Source: a virus
Lineage: Duplodnaviria; Heunggongvirae; Uroviricota; Caudoviricetes
Virus record (IMG/VR): IMGVR_UViG_2778260993_000018
Location: 1-16,902 of that record
Length of the DNA: 16,902 nucleotides
Direction: 5' to 3' (one strand)
Shown: positions 7,056-15,862 of the stretch, piece by piece
Layout: every line of letters begins with the position of its first letter
How positions within the stretch are numbered: position 1 is the first letter of the stretch
Notes under the pieces: generated by a model
The model's input: only the letters and a program-made list of their open reading frames with translations
The model's database searches: none
Told to the model about the DNA's origin: nothing
Program-made: the position numbers and the translations under genes

Positions 7056-7760
7056 TTATCCGACCCTGTTATACTGGATTGACTGATGAATGAGAACTTT
7101 CCCCATTATGAATAGATGTTCTTCAGTTGATTCACTTATAAACCATTCCTTGTAGGCCGGATTGTCTGATATAACAGCAAGTTGCATCCCTTGCATTTGC
7201 AGGCGTTTGATATGGAAAGTGTGCCCAAAAATAAAAATATAGATACCGTCAGTTTCAAAATTTCTGACGGATACGTCGACAAACACCTGATCTCCTGCAC
7301 ACAGAGTAGGAGCCATGCTGTCGCCATCAACTGTTATCATCTTTATGATATTTGCTGGCCTGCTACAGAACAGACGTCTTGCGGCGTCATGTGAAAATTC
7401 TATAGCATGGACCGTTTCTGCAAAATCTGAAACAAGGAATGTTCCTGGTCCCGCGCTGGCAGCGATATCCAGGACTTCCACACGAAAAATATCCTTATCA
7501 TTTTCCAGCGGGGAATATGATACCTGTGGTGTCGGATTGCAGGATGTGCTTTCTTCTGGGGTCATAGGACCAACACCGTACGATAGCCACTCGGGGCGCA
7601 CGTTCAGGGTATTGGCTATCTCCACAACTTTCCTGGAGCCTGTGGCACCATTAACCAGTTTATTTACGCTCGATTGAGCCATGCCAACCTCTCTGGCCAG
7701 TTTTCCCTGCGAGTATCCGCGGATAGTCATAGCTAACTGTAGCCTGTCTGAAAAGCTCAT
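7056..7760 (-). CDS. cI: CI-like prophage repressor (N-terminal HTH, C-terminal LexA/S24 autopeptidase domain), 234 aa
   Basis: HTH (..RGYSQGKLAREVGMAQSSVNKLVNG..) and S24 signature (..VDGDSMAPTL.. with downstream ..IMGKVL..). ATG at 7760 preceded by AAGGAGG with a 5-nt spacer; the upstream 25 codons of the ORF-track call are probably untranslated. Divergent from cro. Confidence 0.85.
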   Translation of the reverse strand: MSFSDRLQLAMTIRGYSQGKLAREVGMAQSSVNKLVNGATGSRKVVEIANTLNVRPEWLSYGVGPMTPEESTSCNPTPQVSYSPLENDKDIFRVEVLDIAASAGPGTFLVSDFAETVHAIEFSHDAARRLFCSRPANIIKMITVDGDSMAPTLCAGDQVFVDVSVRNFETDGIYIFIFGHTFHIKRLQMQGMQLAVISDNPAYKEWFISESTEEHLFIMGKVLIHQSIQYNRVG

Positions 7761-7786
7761 AAGTCCTCCTTTTTCTGCCCTTTTAG

Positions 7787-7858
7787 TATATCGCCTTAGC
7801 GATATATACACAAACCGCTTTTCCGTACATTGCAATCGCTTTAATCAATCGCTATAGT
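7787..7858. promoter_or_regulatory. cI-cro intergenic switch region: candidate operators with rightward and leftward promoters
   Basis: 20-bp palindrome TATATCGC-CTTA-GCGATATA (7787-7806). Direct repeat CAATCGCT at 7833-7840 and 7846-7853. Candidate rightward promoter TTGCAA (7830-7835), 17-nt spacer, TATAGT (7853-7858). Candidate leftward maintenance promoter on the minus strand: TTGTGT (7813..7808) and TATACT (7790..7785). Confidence 0.5.
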
Positions 7859-7883
7859 GAATGAAATCAGGTTGGAGGTCGAT

Positions 7884-8147
7884 ATGAAAAATGAAGGTAT
7901 AGCCAAGGCTGTAGATATTGCGGGAAGCCAGATTGCTCTGGCTAGGCGTTGTGGTCGCGCGCAGTCAACAATTTGCGACTGGCTGAATGGGAAGAAAAAA
8001 ATTTCTCCTGAATTTGTTCCGTCTCTGGTTAAGGCGGTCGATGGGAAAGTCCAGGCGTATGAATTTCGTCCTGATCTACCGGAGCTTTTCCCACACCCAA
8101 GTTTAGCGCACACAGAAGATGGAGTGTGCGAAGGAGATAAACAGTGA
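7884..8147 (+). CDS. cro: Cro-like small helix-turn-helix regulator, 87 aa
   Basis: GGAGG Shine-Dalgarno 5 nt before the ATG at 7884. HTH-like segment ..SQIALARRCGRAQSTICDWLNG... Divergent from cI. The ORF-track start at 7857 is less likely. Confidence 0.7.
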   Translation: MKNEGIAKAVDIAGSQIALARRCGRAQSTICDWLNGKKKISPEFVPSLVKAVDGKVQAYEFRPDLPELFPHPSLAHTEDGVCEGDKQ

Positions 8148-8851
8148 ATACAACAATTTTTACCGATAAAGCATCCATGACCAGTATTGAGATAGCTGAG
8201 CTGGTGGGAAGCAGACCAGATAGTGTTAAGAGAACTATTGAAACACTGGCTAAAAAGGGAATCATCCAATTTCCACAGACTGTGGAAATTGAGAATAAAC
8301 AATCACTTGGGCCTCGCCGATTTTCTAGCGCGTATGTATTCGAAGGTGAACGAGGCAAACGCGACAGCATTATTGTTGTCGCACAGCTTTGCCCTGAATT
8401 CACTGCCCGCCTGGTAGATCGCTGGCGTGAACTGGAAGAACAAATCCGTAAACCGATGAGCCAGATTGAAATGGTTGCTGCAATGGCACTTGAAGCCGTT
8501 CGTCAACAAAGACGTCTTGAGCAGGTGGAAGAGAAAGTCACCCACGTTACTGAAACCGTCGAGAAAATCAAAAGAGGCACCATACGCGATGGTTATGCAG
8601 GCTACCGTCAGCTGGTGGCGAAAACGGGTATGTCAGATGCGAAATGCCGCAATCTGGTGAACGCATATCAGATCCCTACCGACACCCATGAGTTCATGAC
8701 GCCGGATGGATTGTTGTCGCGTCGCGCGATTGTTGCAGTAGAACCTTTCATGGCTGCTTTTCATCGCATGATGAGTGAAGCAGAGCCACGAGGTGCACGC
8801 TGGTATCACCCGAAAATGGGGTTGTTCCAGGCGCTGGGCTGGCAGGTGTAA
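8144..8851 (+). CDS. Phage regulatory / antirepressor-like protein (Rha or ORF6N-like N-terminal DNA-binding domain), 235 aa
   Basis: GTG start overlapping the cro stop (GTGA), with AAGGAG 7 nt upstream. N-terminus ..MTSIEIAELVGSRPDSVKRTIETLAKKG.. resembles phage Rha/antirepressor N-domains (recalled). Confidence 0.6.
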   Translation: MNTTIFTDKASMTSIEIAELVGSRPDSVKRTIETLAKKGIIQFPQTVEIENKQSLGPRRFSSAYVFEGERGKRDSIIVVAQLCPEFTARLVDRWRELEEQIRKPMSQIEMVAAMALEAVRQQRRLEQVEEKVTHVTETVEKIKRGTIRDGYAGYRQLVAKTGMSDAKCRNLVNAYQIPTDTHEFMTPDGLLSRRAIVAVEPFMAAFHRMMSEAEPRGARWYHPKMGLFQALGWQV

Positions 8852-8853
8852 TT

Positions 8854-9687
8854 ATGCTCACAGGTAACACATGCAAGTACTCAATCGCTGGTTCCGTGAT
8901 GGAAGGGGGCGTCGCGTCCACATTATACGCTGGGAGCCTGAAACACAGCGGGTTATTTACCTGCGTGATGGTTATCCGCATGAATGCTTCAGCCCGCTGT
9001 GGTTGTTTCGTCGTGATTTTGTTGAGTGTGAAGCGCCACCAGCATATTGATTCTGCAATTCCGGGACGTTACACTGTTCTGGCACCTTATAAAGCGGGTG
9101 CCGGGGGTCGCAGCCCGGAATTGCATACGGCGATATACGACGCGCCAGCGTCTTTTTTATCGTCCGCGCTCACGCACGCCAGAATTATGGTGGGCTGGGC
9201 AGGGGAGCCGAAAGGCTCGCCGGTTTCCGTATGCGCCGGTACTGCGAACCCTGTTCAGTCTGCCACCAGTGAGTTTCGCAGCTCCGGTGGTGGAAGTTAT
9301 CCATTGCATACGGAGGCTGCCATCATGGCTACAGACCCAACTTCCCCATACCTGAAAATCGAAGTCGTCAACGGCAAGGCCGTTATTTTCTCCCTGCATG
9401 TTGCCTGCCATTTCAAGCGCATGCACCAGAACATCGTCGACAAAATCGAGTATCTGAACTGCTCGCGCGAATTTTTTACCCGCAATTTCATACCGGGTAC
9501 TTATCACATCTATGGTGACTCCCTGCGTGGTTATTACATCACCTTTGATGGCCTGATGATGCTTCAGCTTGGGTTAAGTCTACGCACAATGCGGTACTAC
9601 GAGAGCTGCATTGAAGCATTCCATGAGGCAGGGAACAGCCTGAATCTTACCGCTTTCCGCCGTAATCAGTGGGAGGCGCGTCCATGA
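8854..9687 (+). CDS. Rha-family (Phage_pRha-like) regulatory protein; start uncertain (Rha-like domain begins at ATG 9325)
   Basis: C-terminal half (..KIEVVNGKAVIFSLHVACHFKRMHQNIVDKIEYL..FIPGTYHIYGDSLRGYYITFDGLMMLQLG..) fits the Rha pattern. GGAGG with 8-nt spacer precedes the ATG at 9325. The upstream in-frame 157 codons contain a promoter-like box and a terminator hairpin and may not all be coding. Ends ..EARP with an ATGA overlap to the next ORF. Confidence 0.55.
   Translation: MLTGNTCKYSIAGSVMEGGVASTLYAGSLKHSGLFTCVMVIRMNASARCGCFVVILLSVKRHQHIDSAIPGRYTVLAPYKAGAGGRSPELHTAIYDAPASFLSSALTHARIMVGWAGEPKGSPVSVCAGTANPVQSATSEFRSSGGGSYPLHTEAAIMATDPTSPYLKIEVVNGKAVIFSLHVACHFKRMHQNIVDKIEYLNCSREFFTRNFIPGTYHIYGDSLRGYYITFDGLMMLQLGLSLRTMRYYESCIEAFHEAGNSLNLTAFRRNQWEARP
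9047..9158 (+). ncRNA. Candidate small RNA / leader unit A: promoter box, 5' stem-loop and intrinsic terminator (RNA about 9082-9158)
   Basis: TTGATT (9047-9052), 17-nt spacer, TACACT (9070-9075). 5' stem CTGGCACC/GGTGCCGG (9079-9104). Terminator GACGC-gcca-GCGTC followed by six T (9139-9158). Paralogous to unit B. Confidence 0.35.
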
Positions 9688-9878
9688 TTAGTTACGAAAT
9701 TATTATTTCCACAACTGAATACAGAAACGATGTATCAGTTCGCACGGATGTATCTGTCTGGCACCGTCGCTATAAATCCAGAAAAACAGCGGAACTGAAA
9801 GCGGCAGAGATGTGTGAAACCATCTCAATGAAAGGTAGCCCGGTTAAATACGTAACTACGGCGGAGGTGCGTCCATGA
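9684..9878 (+). CDS. Hypothetical small protein, 64 aa
   Basis: ATG at 9684 within the junction GGAGGCGCGTCCATGA (ATGA overlap with the upstream stop). Ends ..AEVRP and is followed by the same junction. AT-rich relative to its neighbours. Confidence 0.45.
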   Translation: MISYEIIISTTEYRNDVSVRTDVSVWHRRYKSRKTAELKAAEMCETISMKGSPVKYVTTAEVRP

Positions 9879-10723
9879 TCCGCTACCTGAATATTGATTC
9901 TGCCATTCCGGGACGTTACACTGTTCTGGCACCTTATAAAGCGGGTGCTGGGATTGGCGTCCTGAAATTTACAGAAGAGCATAACCGCGCTCATGCGGTT
10001 TTTTCGTGTCATGAGCATTGCTACGCCCAAATTATGGTGGGGCGTGCAGGGGCATCGCAAGATGCGCCGGGTTCTTCTGTGACCGGTTACGCCAACCCTG
10101 TACGTCTCACCACCTCTGTGATTGGCGTCCCATGTGGTGAGTGTTTTAAACTCACAGAAGGGGCTGTCATCATGACTACTCTCCCAACCATCGCTCAACC
10201 TGAACTTTGCATTGTTGCTGGCAAAGTGGTTACTTCTTCTCTGTCTGTTGCTAGTTATTTCCGCAAACAACACAAAAATGTCATTCAAAAAATTGCGTCT
10301 CTTGAATGCTCTGCCGAATTTACTGAGCTGAATTTTCAGCCCAGTGATTACACTGACGTATCAGGCCGCAAACTTCCCTGCTACCAAATCACCCGCGACG
10401 GCTTTGCGTTTCTTGCTATGGGCTTCACTGGTAAACGTGCTACCCGGTTCAAAGAGGCATACATCAATGCCTTTAACCAGATGGAGAAGAGTTTATCAGG
10501 TGCCGATGCGTCTGATATGTCAGCTGTCGCACGAAACGCCAGAGGCGTATACCTGCATTTGCGTGAAATCCATCAAATCTGGACAAGCCAGCTTTATCCA
10601 ATGCTTAAGGCTGTTGAATCTCCGCTGGCCAGCAAACTGTACGACCGTGTAGGTGATGCTGTTTTTGGTGCTGCACTTGTTGATTCCTGGCTGAATGGTT
10701 CTGACAAGGAGGTGCGTCCATGA
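9875..10723 (+). CDS. Rha-family (Phage_pRha-like) regulatory protein, 282 aa; Rha-like domain begins near ATG 10172
   Basis: ..PELCIVAGKVVTSSLSVASYFRKQHKNVIQKIASLE..NFQPSDYTDVSGRKLPCYQITRDGFAFLAMGFTGKRATRFKEAYINAFNQME.. fits the Rha pattern. Start at 9875 uses the conserved junction GGAGGTGCGTCCATGA. N-terminal 99 codons are paralogous to the leader of the previous gene. Confidence 0.6.
   Translation: MIRYLNIDSAIPGRYTVLAPYKAGAGIGVLKFTEEHNRAHAVFSCHEHCYAQIMVGRAGASQDAPGSSVTGYANPVRLTTSVIGVPCGECFKLTEGAVIMTTLPTIAQPELCIVAGKVVTSSLSVASYFRKQHKNVIQKIASLECSAEFTELNFQPSDYTDVSGRKLPCYQITRDGFAFLAMGFTGKRATRFKEAYINAFNQMEKSLSGADASDMSAVARNARGVYLHLREIHQIWTSQLYPMLKAVESPLASKLYDRVGDAVFGAALVDSWLNGSDKEVRP
9894..10004 (+). 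ncRNA. Candidate small RNA / leader unit B: promoter box, 5' stem-loop and intrinsic terminator (RNA about 9929-10004)
   Basis: TTGATT (9894-9899), 17-nt spacer, TACACT (9917-9922). 5' stem preserved through a C-to-T change giving a G-U wobble. Terminator AACCGC-gctcat-GCGGTT with a T-run (9983-10004) at the same relative position as in unit A, with a different stem sequence. Confidence 0.35.
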
Positions 10724-10944
10724 TCCGCCACATCGTTAATTTCCTGTATCACCGATACAACCATTGCCCCCGTGTGGGGCAGTGGTTCACCACCAGCAAC
10801 GGACACGTTCTGCGGGTTTGCCTGGTCAATACAGAAAGCCAGAAGGTTGTCTGCCAGGTTCAGGGACGTACTCATACCCTGAGTTATCCGCTGGTGGCGT
10901 TTCAGTCCGGAAAAATGTTTAAGCGTCTGGGAGGTGCCGTATGA
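10720..10944 (+). CDS. Hypothetical small protein, 74 aa
   Basis: Starts at the conserved junction GGAGGTGCGTCCATGA (10708-10723). Stop overlaps the ATG of the replication initiator through a related junction GGAGGTGCCGTATGA. Confidence 0.45.
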   Translation: MIRHIVNFLYHRYNHCPRVGQWFTTSNGHVLRVCLVNTESQKVVCQVQGRTHTLSYPLVAFQSGKMFKRLGGAV

Positions 10945-11882
10945 GTAGCAAAATCCTAGGTAATGTCTGGGATGCATGTGCAGCATATGGCATCAAAGGT
11001 GCAAAACTGATGATTATGGCGCGCCTGGCGGATTATTCGAATGATGACGGGGTGTGCTACCCAGGTGTTGAAACCATATGTCGACAGCTTGGATTGGGAG
11101 AAAGTACAGTCAGAACGGCAATCTCCGAACTGGAGGCTGATGGCTGGCTGACGCGTCAGTCACGCCGCAAAGGTAACCGTAATACGTCCAATCTTTATCA
11201 TCTGAATGCTGATCGGCTTGAGCTGCTTGCCAGAACAGAGCGGGATAAGGTTGCAGAACTGAAACAGCAGCGCAGACTTTCAGTATTACGTGACCCTTCA
11301 GATTCTGAACCTTCAAAATCTGAACCTTCAAAATCTGAACCGTCAGAATCTGTATGTTCAGGCGTGTTTGACCCTTCAGATTCTGGCAAAAATACGCGTT
11401 TGACCCTTCAGAATCTGACCCCAGATCCACAAGGTTTAAAACATGAACCACCAGTAAATTCAAAACATGAACCGCAAGATATTGGCGCATCCGCTGACGC
11501 GTCTGCACCAGCGCGTTCTGCCAGACAGGAATATTCACCGGAATTTGAACAGGCCTGGCAGGAATATCCCAAACGTGCTGGTGGTAATTCCAAGTCAGCA
11601 GCCTTCAAAGCCTGGAAAGCCCGAATCAGGGAAGGTGTGACACCAGAAACCATGCTCAACGGTGTGAAACGCTATGCTGCCTGGGTGCGTGTCTCAGGAA
11701 ATACCGGCACCCAGTTCGTGAAGCAGGCGTCGACGTTCTTTGGACCCGATCGTCACTTCGAAGATTTCTGGCAACAGCCAGCAGCTCCCGGAGGTGGGCG
11801 ACAGCGACAGGTCGATGTCCTGGCTGGCCTGGGAGCCATGTCTGACAAATTCGGTAAATCCAGTGACAAATTGACATTCTGA
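10941..11882 (+). CDS. Phage replication initiation protein (lambda O-like replisome organiser; N-terminal HTH, internal iteron-encoded linker), 313 aa
   Basis: N-terminal helix-turn-helix-like region (..YPGVETICRQLGLGESTVRTAISELEADGWLTRQ..). Internal tandem DNA repeats encode a low-complexity DPSDSEPSKSEPSKSEPSES linker. Immediately followed by DnaC-like and DnaB-like genes. Confidence 0.75.
   Translation: MSSKILGNVWDACAAYGIKGAKLMIMARLADYSNDDGVCYPGVETICRQLGLGESTVRTAISELEADGWLTRQSRRKGNRNTSNLYHLNADRLELLARTERDKVAELKQQRRLSVLRDPSDSEPSKSEPSKSEPSESVCSGVFDPSDSGKNTRLTLQNLTPDPQGLKHEPPVNSKHEPQDIGASADASAPARSARQEYSPEFEQAWQEYPKRAGGNSKSAAFKAWKARIREGVTPETMLNGVKRYAAWVRVSGNTGTQFVKQASTFFGPDRHFEDFWQQPAAPGGGRQRQVDVLAGLGAMSDKFGKSSDKLTF
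11291..11417. repeat. Iteron array (candidate phage origin of replication) inside the initiator gene
   Basis: Six copies of a motif with palindromic core TCAGAWTCTGA: four in tandem at 15-bp spacing (about 11292-11352), two more at about 11369-11385 and 11400-11417. Followed by an A-rich stretch with a duplicated AAAACATGAACC (11441-11480). Confidence 0.7.
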
Positions 11883-11892
11883 GGTGACAGCG

Positions 11893-12771
11893 ATGATGAC
11901 GTTTAACCTGCGTGAACAACAAACAAGACTACAGGCGCGGATGGATGAGTTACGGGCAGAGATTGCATTTGCTCAGAAGGGCGAAAAACCATGGCCTTAT
12001 CGTTCCTGCTGGATGCGTGAAGGGCGCGGGTGTTGCGAAAAACATGGCGAATACCACACACATATTCTGGTGTGGAGGGATCGTAATGGCGAGGACAGAG
12101 AAAAAATTTCATGCTGCCCTGACTGCTTGATAGCTGAGGCCAACGATTTGACCATGGAGCTGTCGTCCCTCAAGGCGGAAGAACTGACTGATAACGCCGG
12201 AATTGCTCTGCGTTTTCGGGACTGCGAGTTTGATAATTATCTGGAGGTTAATCCTGACGCAGCCAGAAATCTTGCGGCCTGTCGCCGCTATGCGGAGAAC
12301 TGGCCAGATATGCTGGAGAACGGTACCAGTCTTGTTATGACCGGCAGTTGCGGTACCGGGAAAAATCATCTGGCGGTATCAATGGCAAAACACATCATCC
12401 GTAACTATCTGGCCAGTGTGGAGATCACCGACGTGATGCGCCTTACCCGGGCTGTGAAAAACTGCTGGCGGAATGACAGTGAAAAAACAGCGGATGACGT
12501 CATTGAGCATTATGCGTCACTGGATTTGCTGATTGTCGACGAAGTCGGCGTTCAGTTTGGCAGTGCGGCTGAAATGGCCATTTTGCAGGAAATTATCAAT
12601 GCCCGGTATGAGGGTATTTTGCCAACTATCCTGATCAGCAACCTTTCACCGGAAGAATTGTGGGCGTTCATCAGTCCCCGGATTGCCGACAGGATCACCG
12701 ATGGCGGGCGCAACTGGTTGTCGTTTAACTGGCCCAGCTACCGTTCTCGTATCGGAGGTGTTGCCGCATGA
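11893..12771 (+). CDS. DnaC-like helicase loader (IstB-like AAA+ ATPase) with N-terminal Cys/His cluster
   Basis: Walker A ..GSCGTGKNHLA.. and Walker B ..LLIVDEVG... N-terminal CCEKHGEYHTH..CCPDC cluster. ATG at 11893 with GAGG 8 nt upstream; the ORF-track GTG at 11884 is the alternative. Confidence 0.85.
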   Translation: MMTFNLREQQTRLQARMDELRAEIAFAQKGEKPWPYRSCWMREGRGCCEKHGEYHTHILVWRDRNGEDREKISCCPDCLIAEANDLTMELSSLKAEELTDNAGIALRFRDCEFDNYLEVNPDAARNLAACRRYAENWPDMLENGTSLVMTGSCGTGKNHLAVSMAKHIIRNYLASVEITDVMRLTRAVKNCWRNDSEKTADDVIEHYASLDLLIVDEVGVQFGSAAEMAILQEIINARYEGILPTILISNLSPEELWAFISPRIADRITDGGRNWLSFNWPSYRSRIGGVAA

Positions 12772-14168
12772 CCAGCCAGAACACCCCGGCATGGCGTAAC
12801 GATGACCTGGAAGGCGCTGTCATCGGTGCGTTTTTTCTGCGTGGGGCCGATCCGGAAGTGATGGATATTCTGGCCACACTTCCGGCGGATGTATTTTTTG
12901 TGCGTCAGTACCGGGATATTTACGCGGGGATTTGCAGACAGGCTCGCATATCCGGCGTCATTGACCCCGTACTGCTGTGCAATGAGATGCCGGAACTTGC
13001 CCCGGTGATTACCGACACCGGACGCAAAACCTGGGTGAAGTCTTCACTGGAGCACTATGTCGCAGCGTTGCGGCGCAATGCCGCACTGCGCGATGCAGAA
13101 AAAACACTGACTGAAGCATTACAGAATTTACGTGATGCGTATACCTGTGAAGCAGCCGAGGATGCCCTGAAGGATGCGCAGAACATGATGGCCTCACTGT
13201 CGACCGGAAAGGGCGTCATTCAGCCGGTTCACATTGATGATGTCCTTCCGGAAGTGGTCGACCGTGTTGAATGCCGCAATCAGGGACTGGAGAAATCCAG
13301 GGCGCTGATGACCGGTATTGATGAACTGGACGCAAAAACGGGCGGTATGGAGCCCGGAGACCTGGTATTCATTGCCGCCCGTCCTTCGATGGGGAAAACC
13401 GAACTTGCGCTGGACATCATCGACAAGGTGACTGAGCAGGGGCATGGCGTGCTTCTGTTCACCATGGAGATGGCGAACATCCAGATTGGTGAACGTATGG
13501 TGTCTGCTGCAGGGGGAATGCCGGTATCCCGTCTTAAGTCTGTTGCCCGTTTTGAAGACGAAGACTGGGCACGTTTCTCACAGGGCGTGGGACGAATGAC
13601 GGGGCGTAATATCTGGATGGTGGACCAGGCAAACCTGACCATTGATGAGATATGTGCAACCACGAAGCACCACCGGATGAAACACCCGGAAACGGCGCTG
13701 GTGGTGGTCGATTACCTCGGCCTGATTAAAACCCGCAGCACGGGGCGTCACGACCTTGCGGTGGGGGAAATCTCAAAGGGACTTAAAAGCCTGGCAAAAT
13801 CCGGCGGTTTTCCGCTGATTGCTCTGAGCCAGCTCTCCCGCGGCGTGGAATCCAGACCCAATAAACGCCCAATGAACTCGGACCTGAAAAACTCCGGGGA
13901 AATCGAGGCGGATGCCGACATCATTCTGATGCTTTACAGGGATGAGGTATACAACCCGGAAACTCAGGCCAGAGGCATAGCAGAAATCAACATCACGAAA
14001 CAGCGTAATGGCACGCTCGGGACCATTTACCGGCGTTTTCATAACGGACATTTTCTGCCTGTGGACCAGGAGAGTGCCCGGGTTCTTTCCACACCCATGA
14101 CGCCGGGCAATCCGCGCAGATACAGCAATAACCGCATGTCGGGCAGTAAAACGGAGCGTTTATTTTGA
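12768..14168 (+). CDS. DnaB-family replicative DNA helicase, 466 aa
   Basis: RecA-like core with Walker A ..ARPSMGKTELALDI.., Walker B ..LVVVDYLGLI.. and ..ALSQLSRGVESR... Start overlaps the loader stop (ATGA). Confidence 0.9.
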   Translation: MTSQNTPAWRNDDLEGAVIGAFFLRGADPEVMDILATLPADVFFVRQYRDIYAGICRQARISGVIDPVLLCNEMPELAPVITDTGRKTWVKSSLEHYVAALRRNAALRDAEKTLTEALQNLRDAYTCEAAEDALKDAQNMMASLSTGKGVIQPVHIDDVLPEVVDRVECRNQGLEKSRALMTGIDELDAKTGGMEPGDLVFIAARPSMGKTELALDIIDKVTEQGHGVLLFTMEMANIQIGERMVSAAGGMPVSRLKSVARFEDEDWARFSQGVGRMTGRNIWMVDQANLTIDEICATTKHHRMKHPETALVVVDYLGLIKTRSTGRHDLAVGEISKGLKSLAKSGGFPLIALSQLSRGVESRPNKRPMNSDLKNSGEIEADADIILMLYRDEVYNPETQARGIAEINITKQRNGTLGTIYRRFHNGHFLPVDQESARVLSTPMTPGNPRRYSNNRMSGSKTERLF

Positions 14169-15464: not shown

Positions 15465-15481
15465 TTTTGTGGAGAAAGTTG

Positions 15482-15862
15482 ATGCGTGATATTCAGATGG
15501 TTCTTGAACGCTGGGGGGCATGGGCTGCAAGTGGTAACACCGGGGTGGACTATTCTCCGATCGCTGCCGGATTCAAAGGACTTTTACCATCTGCCACTAA
15601 ACCACGTCCGGCCTGCTGCGATGATGACGGACTTATCATTGAAAACTGTCTTGCTCGTCTGAAGCAGAAAAAACCTGAGGAGTATTCGCTTCTCATTGCT
15701 CATTATTTGTTGCGAATATCAAAAAGACAGATAGCCAGGACGAGAAAGAAAAGCGAAAAAGCAATACGAATTGAGATGCAGATAGCCGAAGGGTTTATTG
15801 ACGGATGTTTGTCTGTGCTGGGGGTAAGACTGGAGATGGACGACTGGCTGCTAAAAAAGTAA
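15482..15862 (+). CDS. Q: Late-gene antiterminator Q (Phage_antitermQ type), 126 aa
   Basis: N-terminus MRDIQMVLERWGAWAA.. and ..AAGFKGLL..CCDDDGLII..ARLK.. match the Q-antiterminator family (recalled). GGAG 7 nt before the ATG at 15482. Followed by a short region ending in a strong intrinsic terminator. Confidence 0.8.
   Translation: MRDIQMVLERWGAWAASGNTGVDYSPIAAGFKGLLPSATKPRPACCDDDGLIIENCLARLKQKKPEEYSLLIAHYLLRISKRQIARTRKKSEKAIRIEMQIAEGFIDGCLSVLGVRLEMDDWLLKK

Follow-up and report, generated by a model that had tools for sequence, protein, structure and literature searches.

Organization of the two modules

The window analysed here is the complete stretch of 16,902 nucleotides (nt) of the IMG/VR virus record IMGVR_UViG_2778260993_000018 (Caudoviricetes). 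Two modules in tandem were found in it, module A (from 9047, + strand) and module B (from 9875, + strand). Each of them comprises a candidate promoter, a small RNA (sRNA) of the IsrK family, an antisense RNA of the C4 family, the putative target of this antisense RNA over a ribosome-binding site, and a Rha-like gene nested at the end of a longer open reading frame (ORF). A previous note, made by a model from the letters of the sequence and referred to here as the original prediction, had proposed that each Rha-like gene is preceded by a small RNA or an attenuator leader, about 76 nt long. The present analysis supports this proposal, which, however, overlooked the C4 RNA that makes up the second half of the cassette. 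The features of both modules are the following.

Module A
8854-9687, +, long eta-like frame A, open from 8779, candidate starts ATG 8854 or ATG 8980
9047-9075, +, candidate promoter A, -35 TTGATT (9047-9052), 17-nt spacer, -10 TACACT (9070-9075), predicted RNA start 7 nt downstream
9082-9158, +, IsrK-like sRNA A, Rfam RF01394, 57.0 bits, model positions 1-77 of 77
9108-9113, +, a1 A, TCGCAG, in IsrK hairpin 2
9123-9130, +, b1 A, GCATACGG, in the IsrK linker
9183-9270, +, C4/CI-type antisense RNA A, Rfam RF01695, 80.4 bits, model positions 1-87 of 87
9227-9234, +, b' loop A, CCGTATGC, loop of C4 hairpin 2
9242-9248, +, a' A, CTGCGAA, C4 junction
9275-9316, +, a2/b2 target A, a2 and b2 of module A
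9275-9281, +, a2 A, TTCGCAG, in the leader
9306-9316, +, b2 A, GCATACGGAGG, covering the Shine-Dalgarno sequence GGAGG (9312-9316) before ATG 9325
9325-9687, +, nested Rha-like gene A, 120 amino acids (aa), phrog_995 at 1.4e-53, in the position of P4 kil

Module B
9875-10723, +, long eta-like frame B, ATG 9875 overlapping the stop of a 64-aa ORF (ATGA), with GGAGG upstream
9894-9922, +, candidate promoter B, TTGATT (9894-9899), 17-nt spacer, TACACT (9917-9922)
9929-10005, +, IsrK-like sRNA B, Rfam RF01394, 57.4 bits, model positions 1-77 of 77
9954-9960, +, a1 B, TTGGCGT, in IsrK
9969-9980, +, b1 B, TTACAGAAGAGC, in IsrK
10030-10117, +, C4/CI-type antisense RNA B, Rfam RF01695, 80.3 bits, model positions 1-87 of 87
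10071-10082, +, b' loop B, GTTCTTCTGTGA, loop of C4 hairpin 2
10089-10095, +, a' B, ACGCCAA, C4 junction
10122-10162, +, a2/b2 target B, a2 and b2 of module B
10122-10128, +, a2 B, TTGGCGT, in the leader
10152-10162, +, b2 B, TCACAGAAGGG, covering the ribosome-binding site before ATG 10172
10172-10723, +, nested Rha-family gene B, 183 aa, Pfam PF09669 at 109.5 bits, phrog_821 at 2e-101

For comparison, 26 further modules were collected from Escherichia coli prophages, sequenced phages, IMG/VR contigs, P4 and Gifsy-1. The sequenced phages of the set include SfV, phiP27, cdtI, Shiga toxin phages (Stx1 and Stx2), Hafnia phage yong2 and Yersinia phage YpM_39, among others.

IsrK-like RNAs and their candidate promoters

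The scan of the whole window against Rfam gave four matches above threshold, two to isrK and two to C4, all of them full length. The isrK matches (gathering threshold 50 bits) had E-values of 3e-10 and 3.8e-10 for the whole window, and the gathering threshold of C4 is 45 bits. Both isrK units have the layout of the family, with a pair of hairpins at the 5' end, then a Rho-independent terminator and a U-run: the order is hairpin 1, hairpin 2 with a1, the linker with b1, the terminator (9139-9152) and U6 in IsrK-A, and a1, b1, the terminator (9983-10000) and a U-run in IsrK-B. Both also stand in the position of the family, directly 5' of a C4/STnc1160-type RNA and of an antirepressor-type gene. 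As in the family, each unit is predicted to have its own promoter and a primary transcript of approximately 77 nt that would bind Hfq, and the leader of about 76 nt of the original prediction coincides with these 77-nt matches.

The nearly identical block of 58 bp with TTGATT-N17-TACACT described previously was recovered; it holds the two hexamers, the spacer and the first hairpin (GCACCTTATAAAGCGGGTGC), with a single mismatch between A and B. The promoter stretch 9047-9081 showed 97% identity between modules, and the hexamers were nearly invariant across 16 related modules. The assignment as promoter is drawn from this conservation and from the homologous promoters of Gifsy-1 and P4, the former with TTGACA-N17-TATATT at the equivalent place.

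A terminator scan located both of the GC-stem hairpins with T-runs and different stems that had been reported, GACGC-GCCA-GCGTC followed by T6 at 9139-9158 in module A, and AACCGCG-CTCA-TGCGGTT followed by a T-run at 9983-10005 in module B. The stems have a common CGC/GCG core, and the two pairs beneath it are swapped on both sides (G-C and A-U versus A-U and C-G). To this extent the changes are compensatory, as had been claimed, but the loops differ in size, and the two structures are really two terminator alleles. Covariation across homologues, suggested as a check in the original prediction, was found in hairpin 1 of IsrK, with double compensatory changes at 6 pairs among 28 sequences; 7 of the 13 predicted IsrK pairs have such a change, a count in which the terminator is underrepresented, since the MAFFT alignment puts the two terminator alleles out of structural register.

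A perfect 12-nt inverted repeat, TGCAATTCCGGG and CCCGGAATTGCA, was also observed at 9054-9065 and 9114-9125, with the first arm in the promoter spacer and the second one formed by the 3' side of IsrK-A hairpin 2 and the linker. As both arms can pair only on transcripts begun upstream, for instance at PR, an alternative structure specific to those transcripts might be formed.

C4-type antisense RNAs

The C4 RNA begins 25 nt 3' of the IsrK unit in both modules. The minimum free energy fold of C4-A (-45.7 kcal/mol) has the shape of the C4 family, and the comparison of C4-A with C4-B over 27 base pairs revealed 6 compensatory and 4 one-sided changes, with no pair broken. In agreement with the family, the elements a' and b' are complementary both to the downstream a2/b2 over the ribosome-binding site and to the upstream a1/b1. 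At the 5' end of C4 the conserved AUUAUGG supplies an ATG (9187 in A, 10034 in B) that is the counterpart of the first AUG of Gifsy-1 orf45; this codon is in frame with the long ORF and with the nested gene, and therefore each module has three nested in-frame starts. By analogy with the family, RNase P, joined by polynucleotide phosphorylase in P4, is predicted to release C4 from the leader transcript.

Pairing elements and specificity

Duplex energies were determined for the b' loop and the a' junction. The b' loop of A gave -13.7 kcal/mol with its own IsrK and -16.7 kcal/mol with its own leader, versus -5.1 kcal/mol with leader B; the b' loop of B gave -16.9 and -14.1 kcal/mol, respectively, versus -8.6 kcal/mol with leader A. 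Overall, the cross-module duplexes of b' ranged from -5.1 to -9.5 kcal/mol and the cognate ones from -13.7 to -16.9 kcal/mol. Among 20 modules, the own IsrK was ranked first by 19 C4 loops and the own leader by 16. Prediction of duplexes between the whole C4 and the whole IsrK or leader was discarded, as it ignores intramolecular structure and for this reason returned large energies for every combination.

When 16 modules were aligned, b fell into at least 10 specificities and a into at least 5, each of them shifting jointly at all three sites. The variable stretch between the conserved blocks, taken previously as unconstrained, is in fact the one that holds the a1/b1 elements co-varying with C4 and with the region of the ribosome-binding site. 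The a and b elements also reassort: module L001b combines the b of window module A (GCATACGG) with the a of window module B (TTGGCGT), and the loci concerned are L001 (3383-3628 and 4231-4473), L010 and L011 (2543-2785). SfV and Ayreon have the same a specificity and different b, and their IsrK terminator and spacer differ too. The differences between A and B in both a and b, together with the three-way co-variation, argue that the two modules of the window are mutually orthogonal switches of one kind; by analogy, the pair would be the RNA equivalent of the heteroimmunity of P1 and P7 (PMC12197685).

The a1 and a' of module B are identical to those of Gifsy-1. In this prophage the pairing of the middle of IsrK with the 3' end of orf45 was proved with the compensatory mutants G28A/C162U and G31A/C159U (PMC4825925), whose positions fall, by our count, no more than 1-2 nt from a1 and a'.

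Long reading frames and the Ash family

Both long frames begin 5' of the internal promoter (8854/8980-9687 and 9875-10723), read in frame through the promoter, IsrK and C4, and end in the nested gene, which is an eta/kil-type layout. Their translations matched Pfam Phage_ASH (PF10554) with 57 and 56.2 bits (cut-off 26), exactly over the isrK-C4 stretch, with the Ash segments at 9046-9324 and 9893-10171 of the window. The original prediction had also considered a genuine N-terminal domain of two-domain proteins; the repeated block would then be the Pfam 'Ash' domain of Ash-Rha proteins, and the hairpins would be incidental. Besides the Pfam scores, this explanation is favoured by the annotation of the long ORFs as proteins in RefSeq and GenBank, by the start of frame B at ATG 9875 with its upstream GGAGG and its overlap with the preceding stop, and by the cargo frame, which lacks stops in 16 of 16 operon-embedded modules.

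The related modules fall into two classes, 10 intergenic and 18 operon-embedded, with both window modules in the latter. In the embedded class the cargo frame is free of stops from IsrK to the cargo ATG, and polymorphic stop sites in the 16 aligned members numbered 0 in the cargo frame versus 14 and 16 in the other frames; a stop-free frame of equal length was obtained in 2-7% of the shuffles of a single module. Indels in these modules are multiples of three, with the exception of yong2, in which the frame is lost and regained through four indels (-2, -1, -1, -2), so that the peptide is altered and the RNAs are kept. The openness of the long frame, therefore, is the part of the protein interpretation that stood.

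Purifying selection on the Ash amino acid sequence, looked for by means of the ratio of nonsynonymous to synonymous polymorphism (pN/pS) and of the variability by codon position, was absent. The cargo frame of the cassette had a pN/pS of 0.90, the two wrong frames gave 0.90 and 0.85, and the variability was flat over the three codon positions (0.303, 0.321 and 0.299). The downstream genes, used as controls, gave 0.23 (gene A) and 0.48 (gene B) with a clear third-position excess. These values agree with the constraint at RNA rather than protein level that had been put forward, as does the near lack of identity of the in-frame translations of A and B, with only 4 identical positions over the stretch compared in the original prediction. 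The exclusion of stops at a pN/pS of 0.90 argues that the selected feature in the embedded class is the open frame and that the peptide is not under selection as a conserved protein domain.

In the ten intergenic modules (PA28, Stx2 II, phi346 types, typing phage 9, TL-2011b, YpM_39, 569R5, IdasGreatGrand, L005 and L007) stops occur in all frames and the cargo gene begins approximately 50 nt 3' of C4; therefore, the RNAs exist without any ORF. Gifsy-1, examined separately, has the same intergenic layout with stops.

The models PHROGs 821, 995, 3960 and 6928, like PF10554, represent the translated isrK-C4 cassette. The obsolete 'cI gene product' ORF of P4 (L027, 8168-8584, - strand), which lies over the CI RNA, also matches PF10554, and P4 epsilon, at times identified with Ash, is a member of another family (PF25738), which argues that the 'Ash' family corresponds to the translation of the isrK-C4 RNA cassette. 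Taken together, an Ash protein domain with incidental hairpins is very improbable. The long frame is better explained, by analogy with P4 eta, as a translated spacer that would keep ribosome passage and prevent termination of transcripts from the upstream promoter.

The long ORF A was also considered as a conventional protein beginning at 8854 and was rejected: its N-terminal part overlaps the DUF4222 gene and is itself poorly conserved. The complete overlap of the long Ash-Rha ORF A with the DUF4222 gene, in a different frame, is repeated in 8 other phage loci.

Nested Rha-like genes

The proteins A and B are paralogues with 38% identity (E 6e-23). Gene B exceeds the cut-off of Pfam Rha (PF09669, 29.9 bits), and gene A, with 26.3 bits, remains below it. 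Both were compared with AnrP of Gifsy-1 and found to be unrelated to it; therefore, the cassette travels with varied Bro-network cargo. Inside nested gene A, a terminator-like hairpin (AACGGCAAGGCCGTT followed by ATTTTCT) was observed at 9370-9384, which may be a chance match.

Related modules and comparison with P4, Gifsy-1 and P1

The collection includes 7 loci recovered on viral contigs with a strict C4 DNA pattern and, beyond these few, diverse loci from phage and E. coli collections. A search of genome contigs with a protein pattern of the translated cassette gave 6 pattern matches, none of which was confirmed. In all 26 further modules isrK lies directly 5' of C4, with a gap of approximately 25 nt in most of them. 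The c4-a1b1 motif (Rfam RF03163), which belongs to the same clan as C4, reached its threshold in L005, L009, L019, L022 and Gifsy-1, and overlaps isrK in several relatives. Other Rfam matches in the relatives were ryfA in Yersinia phage vB_YpM_39 (L021, 106-404, - strand), an int-alpA RNA in an IMG/VR contig (L007, 8488-8556) and the 3' part of a transfer-messenger RNA at a contig end (L003, 12668-12790, - strand), probably an attachment site.

In Gifsy-1 of Salmonella the isrK match falls on the experimentally defined IsrK (34316-34240) and the C4 match on orf45/STnc1160 (34214-34131), 5' of anrP. The order is that of the window: a promoter, a 77-nt IsrK with its terminator, a C4-type RNA from AUUAUGG, a2/b2 over the ribosome-binding site and an antirepressor-type gene. 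Hershko-Shalev et al. 2016 (PMC4825925) regarded IsrK as structurally homologous to P4 seqA and observed a stable RNA, STnc1160, downstream of it. According to the summary in PMC12197685, the nucleotide sequence of orf45 is conserved and its amino acid sequence varies, the same pattern that was measured here. In contrast to the window, the Gifsy-1 cassette is intergenic, with stops upstream and an orf45 stop before anrP, whereas the window frame is open from 5' of the promoter into the cargo gene. It is also a single cassette, located 3' of antQ, while the PR operon of the window contains a tandem pair.

In P4 the isrK match falls on seqA (8692-8615) and the C4 match on the CI RNA (8507-8420). 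The frame of eta (199 aa, three ATGs at 8767-8761) starts 5' of the constitutive promoter and runs through seqA and CI into kil (ATG 8365, 65 aa), which is in frame with it. The window resembles P4 in this long frame from 5' of an internal promoter, in frame through both RNAs, with a short nested gene, and even the junction peptides are alike (...EAAIMATTLTP in P4; ...EAAIMATDPT and ...GAVIMTTLPT in the window). The immunity order of P4 is PLE, seqA, cI (CI RNA) and seqC within eta/kil (Forti et al. 1999 and Sabbattini et al. 1995, as summarised in PMC10111431), with a seqA-CI spacer longer than that of the window. PMC10111431 states, citing Forti et al. 1999, that the transcript of the internal promoter is terminated via CI/seqA interactions; that Kil is a truncated, immunity-controlled Eta, translatable upon occasional read-through of the terminator; and that translation of the full-length Eta takes place solely on transcripts of the upstream late promoter, with coupling to the upstream gene, and prevents termination. 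The systems differ in cargo and upstream promoter: Kil followed by the replication operon, with PLL and alpA coupling, in P4, and a Rha-like protein, with presumably a lambdoid PR, in the window. Forti and co-workers are also said to have found, in 1999, that eta nonsense mutations lead to premature termination of transcripts from the upstream promoter, which would explain the exclusion of stop codons observed here.

The c4 RNA of P1 and P7 (a1b1-c4-a2b2-icd-ant) is an antisense RNA of the same family, whose a'/b' bind a2/b2 at the ribosome-binding site (Citron and Schuster 1990, described in PMC12197685). The window shares with P1/P7 the duplicate a1/b1 target upstream and differences in a and b, which in those phages give heteroimmunity; the controlled ORF is icd, coupled to ant, in P1 and the Rha-like gene in the window. 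To our knowledge, a separately terminated IsrK-like sRNA has not been described for P1.

Genomic context

The window comes from a lambdoid prophage. Both cassettes lie in its early-right operon, after the regulators close to cro and before the replication genes. The remaining features annotated are listed below.

1-1287, -, integrase
2657-3676, -, IS110-family transposase (Transposase_20 and DEDD_Tnp_IS110 domains)
7056-7835, -, S24-type CI repressor
7857-8147, Cro/YdaS-like protein
8144-8851, Rha/Ant-like regulator
8871-9050, +, DUF4222 gene, Pfam PF13973 at 56.7 bits, protein conserved in 9 loci
9684-9878, 64-aa ORF between modules A and B
10720-10944, 74-aa ORF 3' of module B
10941-14168, O-like, DnaC-like and DnaB genes
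15467-15862, Q antiterminator

The IS110-family transposase sits in the early-left region of the prophage, adjoining an SPFH/Band 7 gene (3846-4673, - strand). The stop of the DUF4222 gene (TGA, 9048-9050) falls within the -35 hexamer TTGATT of module A.

Modules A and B align collinearly, each position of B lying 847 nt after its counterpart in A; over 302 nt (9029-9330 versus 9876-10177) they have no indel and 65% identity. Module A is 95% identical to a Stx1-phage module and module B approximately 92% identical to a Stx2c-phage module. Since A and B are far closer to these modules than to each other, chance and a simple recent tandem duplication were rejected, and the pair was probably assembled by mosaic recombination rather than by local duplication. 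Tandem pairs of modules are also present in the E. coli prophages L001 and L002. A 16-nt junction, GGAGG(C/T)GCGTCCATGA, occurs three times (9672-9687, 9863-9878 and 10708-10723); it consists of a Shine-Dalgarno sequence and an ATGA stop/start overlap, borders the small ORFs and module B, and could serve for translational coupling and also as recombination joint between mosaic modules.

Proposed function and alternative explanations

We consider, with a probability of about 85%, that modules A and B are a tandem pair of mutually orthogonal RNA immunity cassettes of the P4/Gifsy-1/P1 type guarding Rha-like, antirepressor-type genes. Family membership, the three-way complementarity with its co-variation, the difference of the two modules in both a and b and the open but unconstrained frame are observed directly, and the steps of the mechanism are modelled on the characterised relatives P4, P1 and Gifsy-1. 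Each cassette would be ordered as a weak constitutive promoter, IsrK (a1/b1), C4 (a'/b'), a2/b2 over the Shine-Dalgarno sequence and a Rha-like (Bro-network) gene. In the lysogen, with PR repressed, only the internal promoters would fire and most transcripts would end at the IsrK terminator. Those reading through would be processed to C4, which would pair with a2/b2, block the translation of the Rha-like gene and expose the transcript to Rho-dependent termination. IsrK would offer decoy sites for C4 and, either by binding C4 or by remodelling the leader, could activate translation, as it does in Gifsy-1. Once the prophage is induced, transcripts from PR would carry ribosomes already in the eta-like frame (ATGA coupling at 9875); these would open both the terminator and the target structures of C4, and expression would thereby escape the RNA immunity, as was shown for P4 eta. 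The cassette plausibly controls antirepressor-type genes and hence prophage induction; control of such genes by a small RNA, to which the original prediction had also pointed, is the known role of the cassette (PMC4825925; PMC12197685).

Several points weigh against this interpretation. A generic promoter scan of the window omitted TTGATT-N17-TACACT, because the hexamers match the sigma-70 consensus at 8 of 12 positions. The best match of the window to the c4-a1b1 motif reached 16.8 bits (9069-9121), below the threshold of 46.7 bits. The intergenic modules and Gifsy-1 indicate that translation through the cassette is dispensable for the RNA switch itself. The start of long frame A is uncertain, because the conserved DUF4222 gene, whose end lies within the -35 hexamer, overlaps this frame; the openness of the frame across this overlap could be inherited rather than selected. 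Finally, the published model of Gifsy-1 presents IsrK as an activator through remodelling of the leader, and those of P1 and P4 stress repression by C4.

The best of the alternatives is that the IsrK-like unit acts, as in P1, only in cis, as an attenuator with an a1/b1 decoy in the leader, and that the short terminated RNA is a by-product without function in trans. The a1/b1 located 5' of c4 in P1/P7 have been described as part of the leader (Rfam RF03163), and in Gifsy-1 a cis role of the IsrK segment in the inactive 'structure A' has been reported (PMC4825925). The units of the window, however, match the isrK model fully, terminator included, and match poorly the c4-a1b1 model cited above, which makes this alternative unlikely. 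The Ash-Rha domain explanation is weaker still: in addition to the absence of selection on the peptide, the frame changes of yong2 and the intergenic cassettes with stops, the PF10554 model itself coincides with isrK plus C4.

Significance

IsrK and C4 belong to well-described families that are detected by the current Rfam models, and the system has already been described. Three points go slightly beyond the literature surveyed: two orthogonal modules in tandem, a and b elements that reassort, and the quantification of an open but unconstrained 'Ash domain' frame. In the RefSeq and GenBank records examined, the IsrK and C4 RNAs are unannotated, and the cassette is labelled as a coding sequence for an 'Ash family protein', 'antirepressor' or 'immunity region'. 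The element was matched in 1,621 of 5,426 complete E. coli genomes at the sensitivity of megablast, although only 51 of them carry most of the query.

A more extensive proposal is possible but doubtful: rather than redundant copies, the two cassettes would be orthogonal RNA 'locks' with freely reassorting a and b, giving separately addressable antirepressor-type outputs and a network of immunity and induction across prophages, by matching or decoying the C4 and IsrK of other phages. As a corollary, the widely annotated 'Ash' (PF10554 and several PHROGs) would be no protein domain; it would be the product of translating an RNA cassette in a frame that is forced open, under selection solely for the passage of ribosomes.

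The tandem orthogonal pair and the reassorting a and b elements are a modest addition to the understanding of how RNA immunities diversify, and leave the known mechanism unchanged. The Ash domain has been listed as of unknown function in studies of Stx phages (PMC8951638); with its recognition as IsrK plus C4, an element common in Stx-converting and other lambdoid prophages acquires a function that can be tested.

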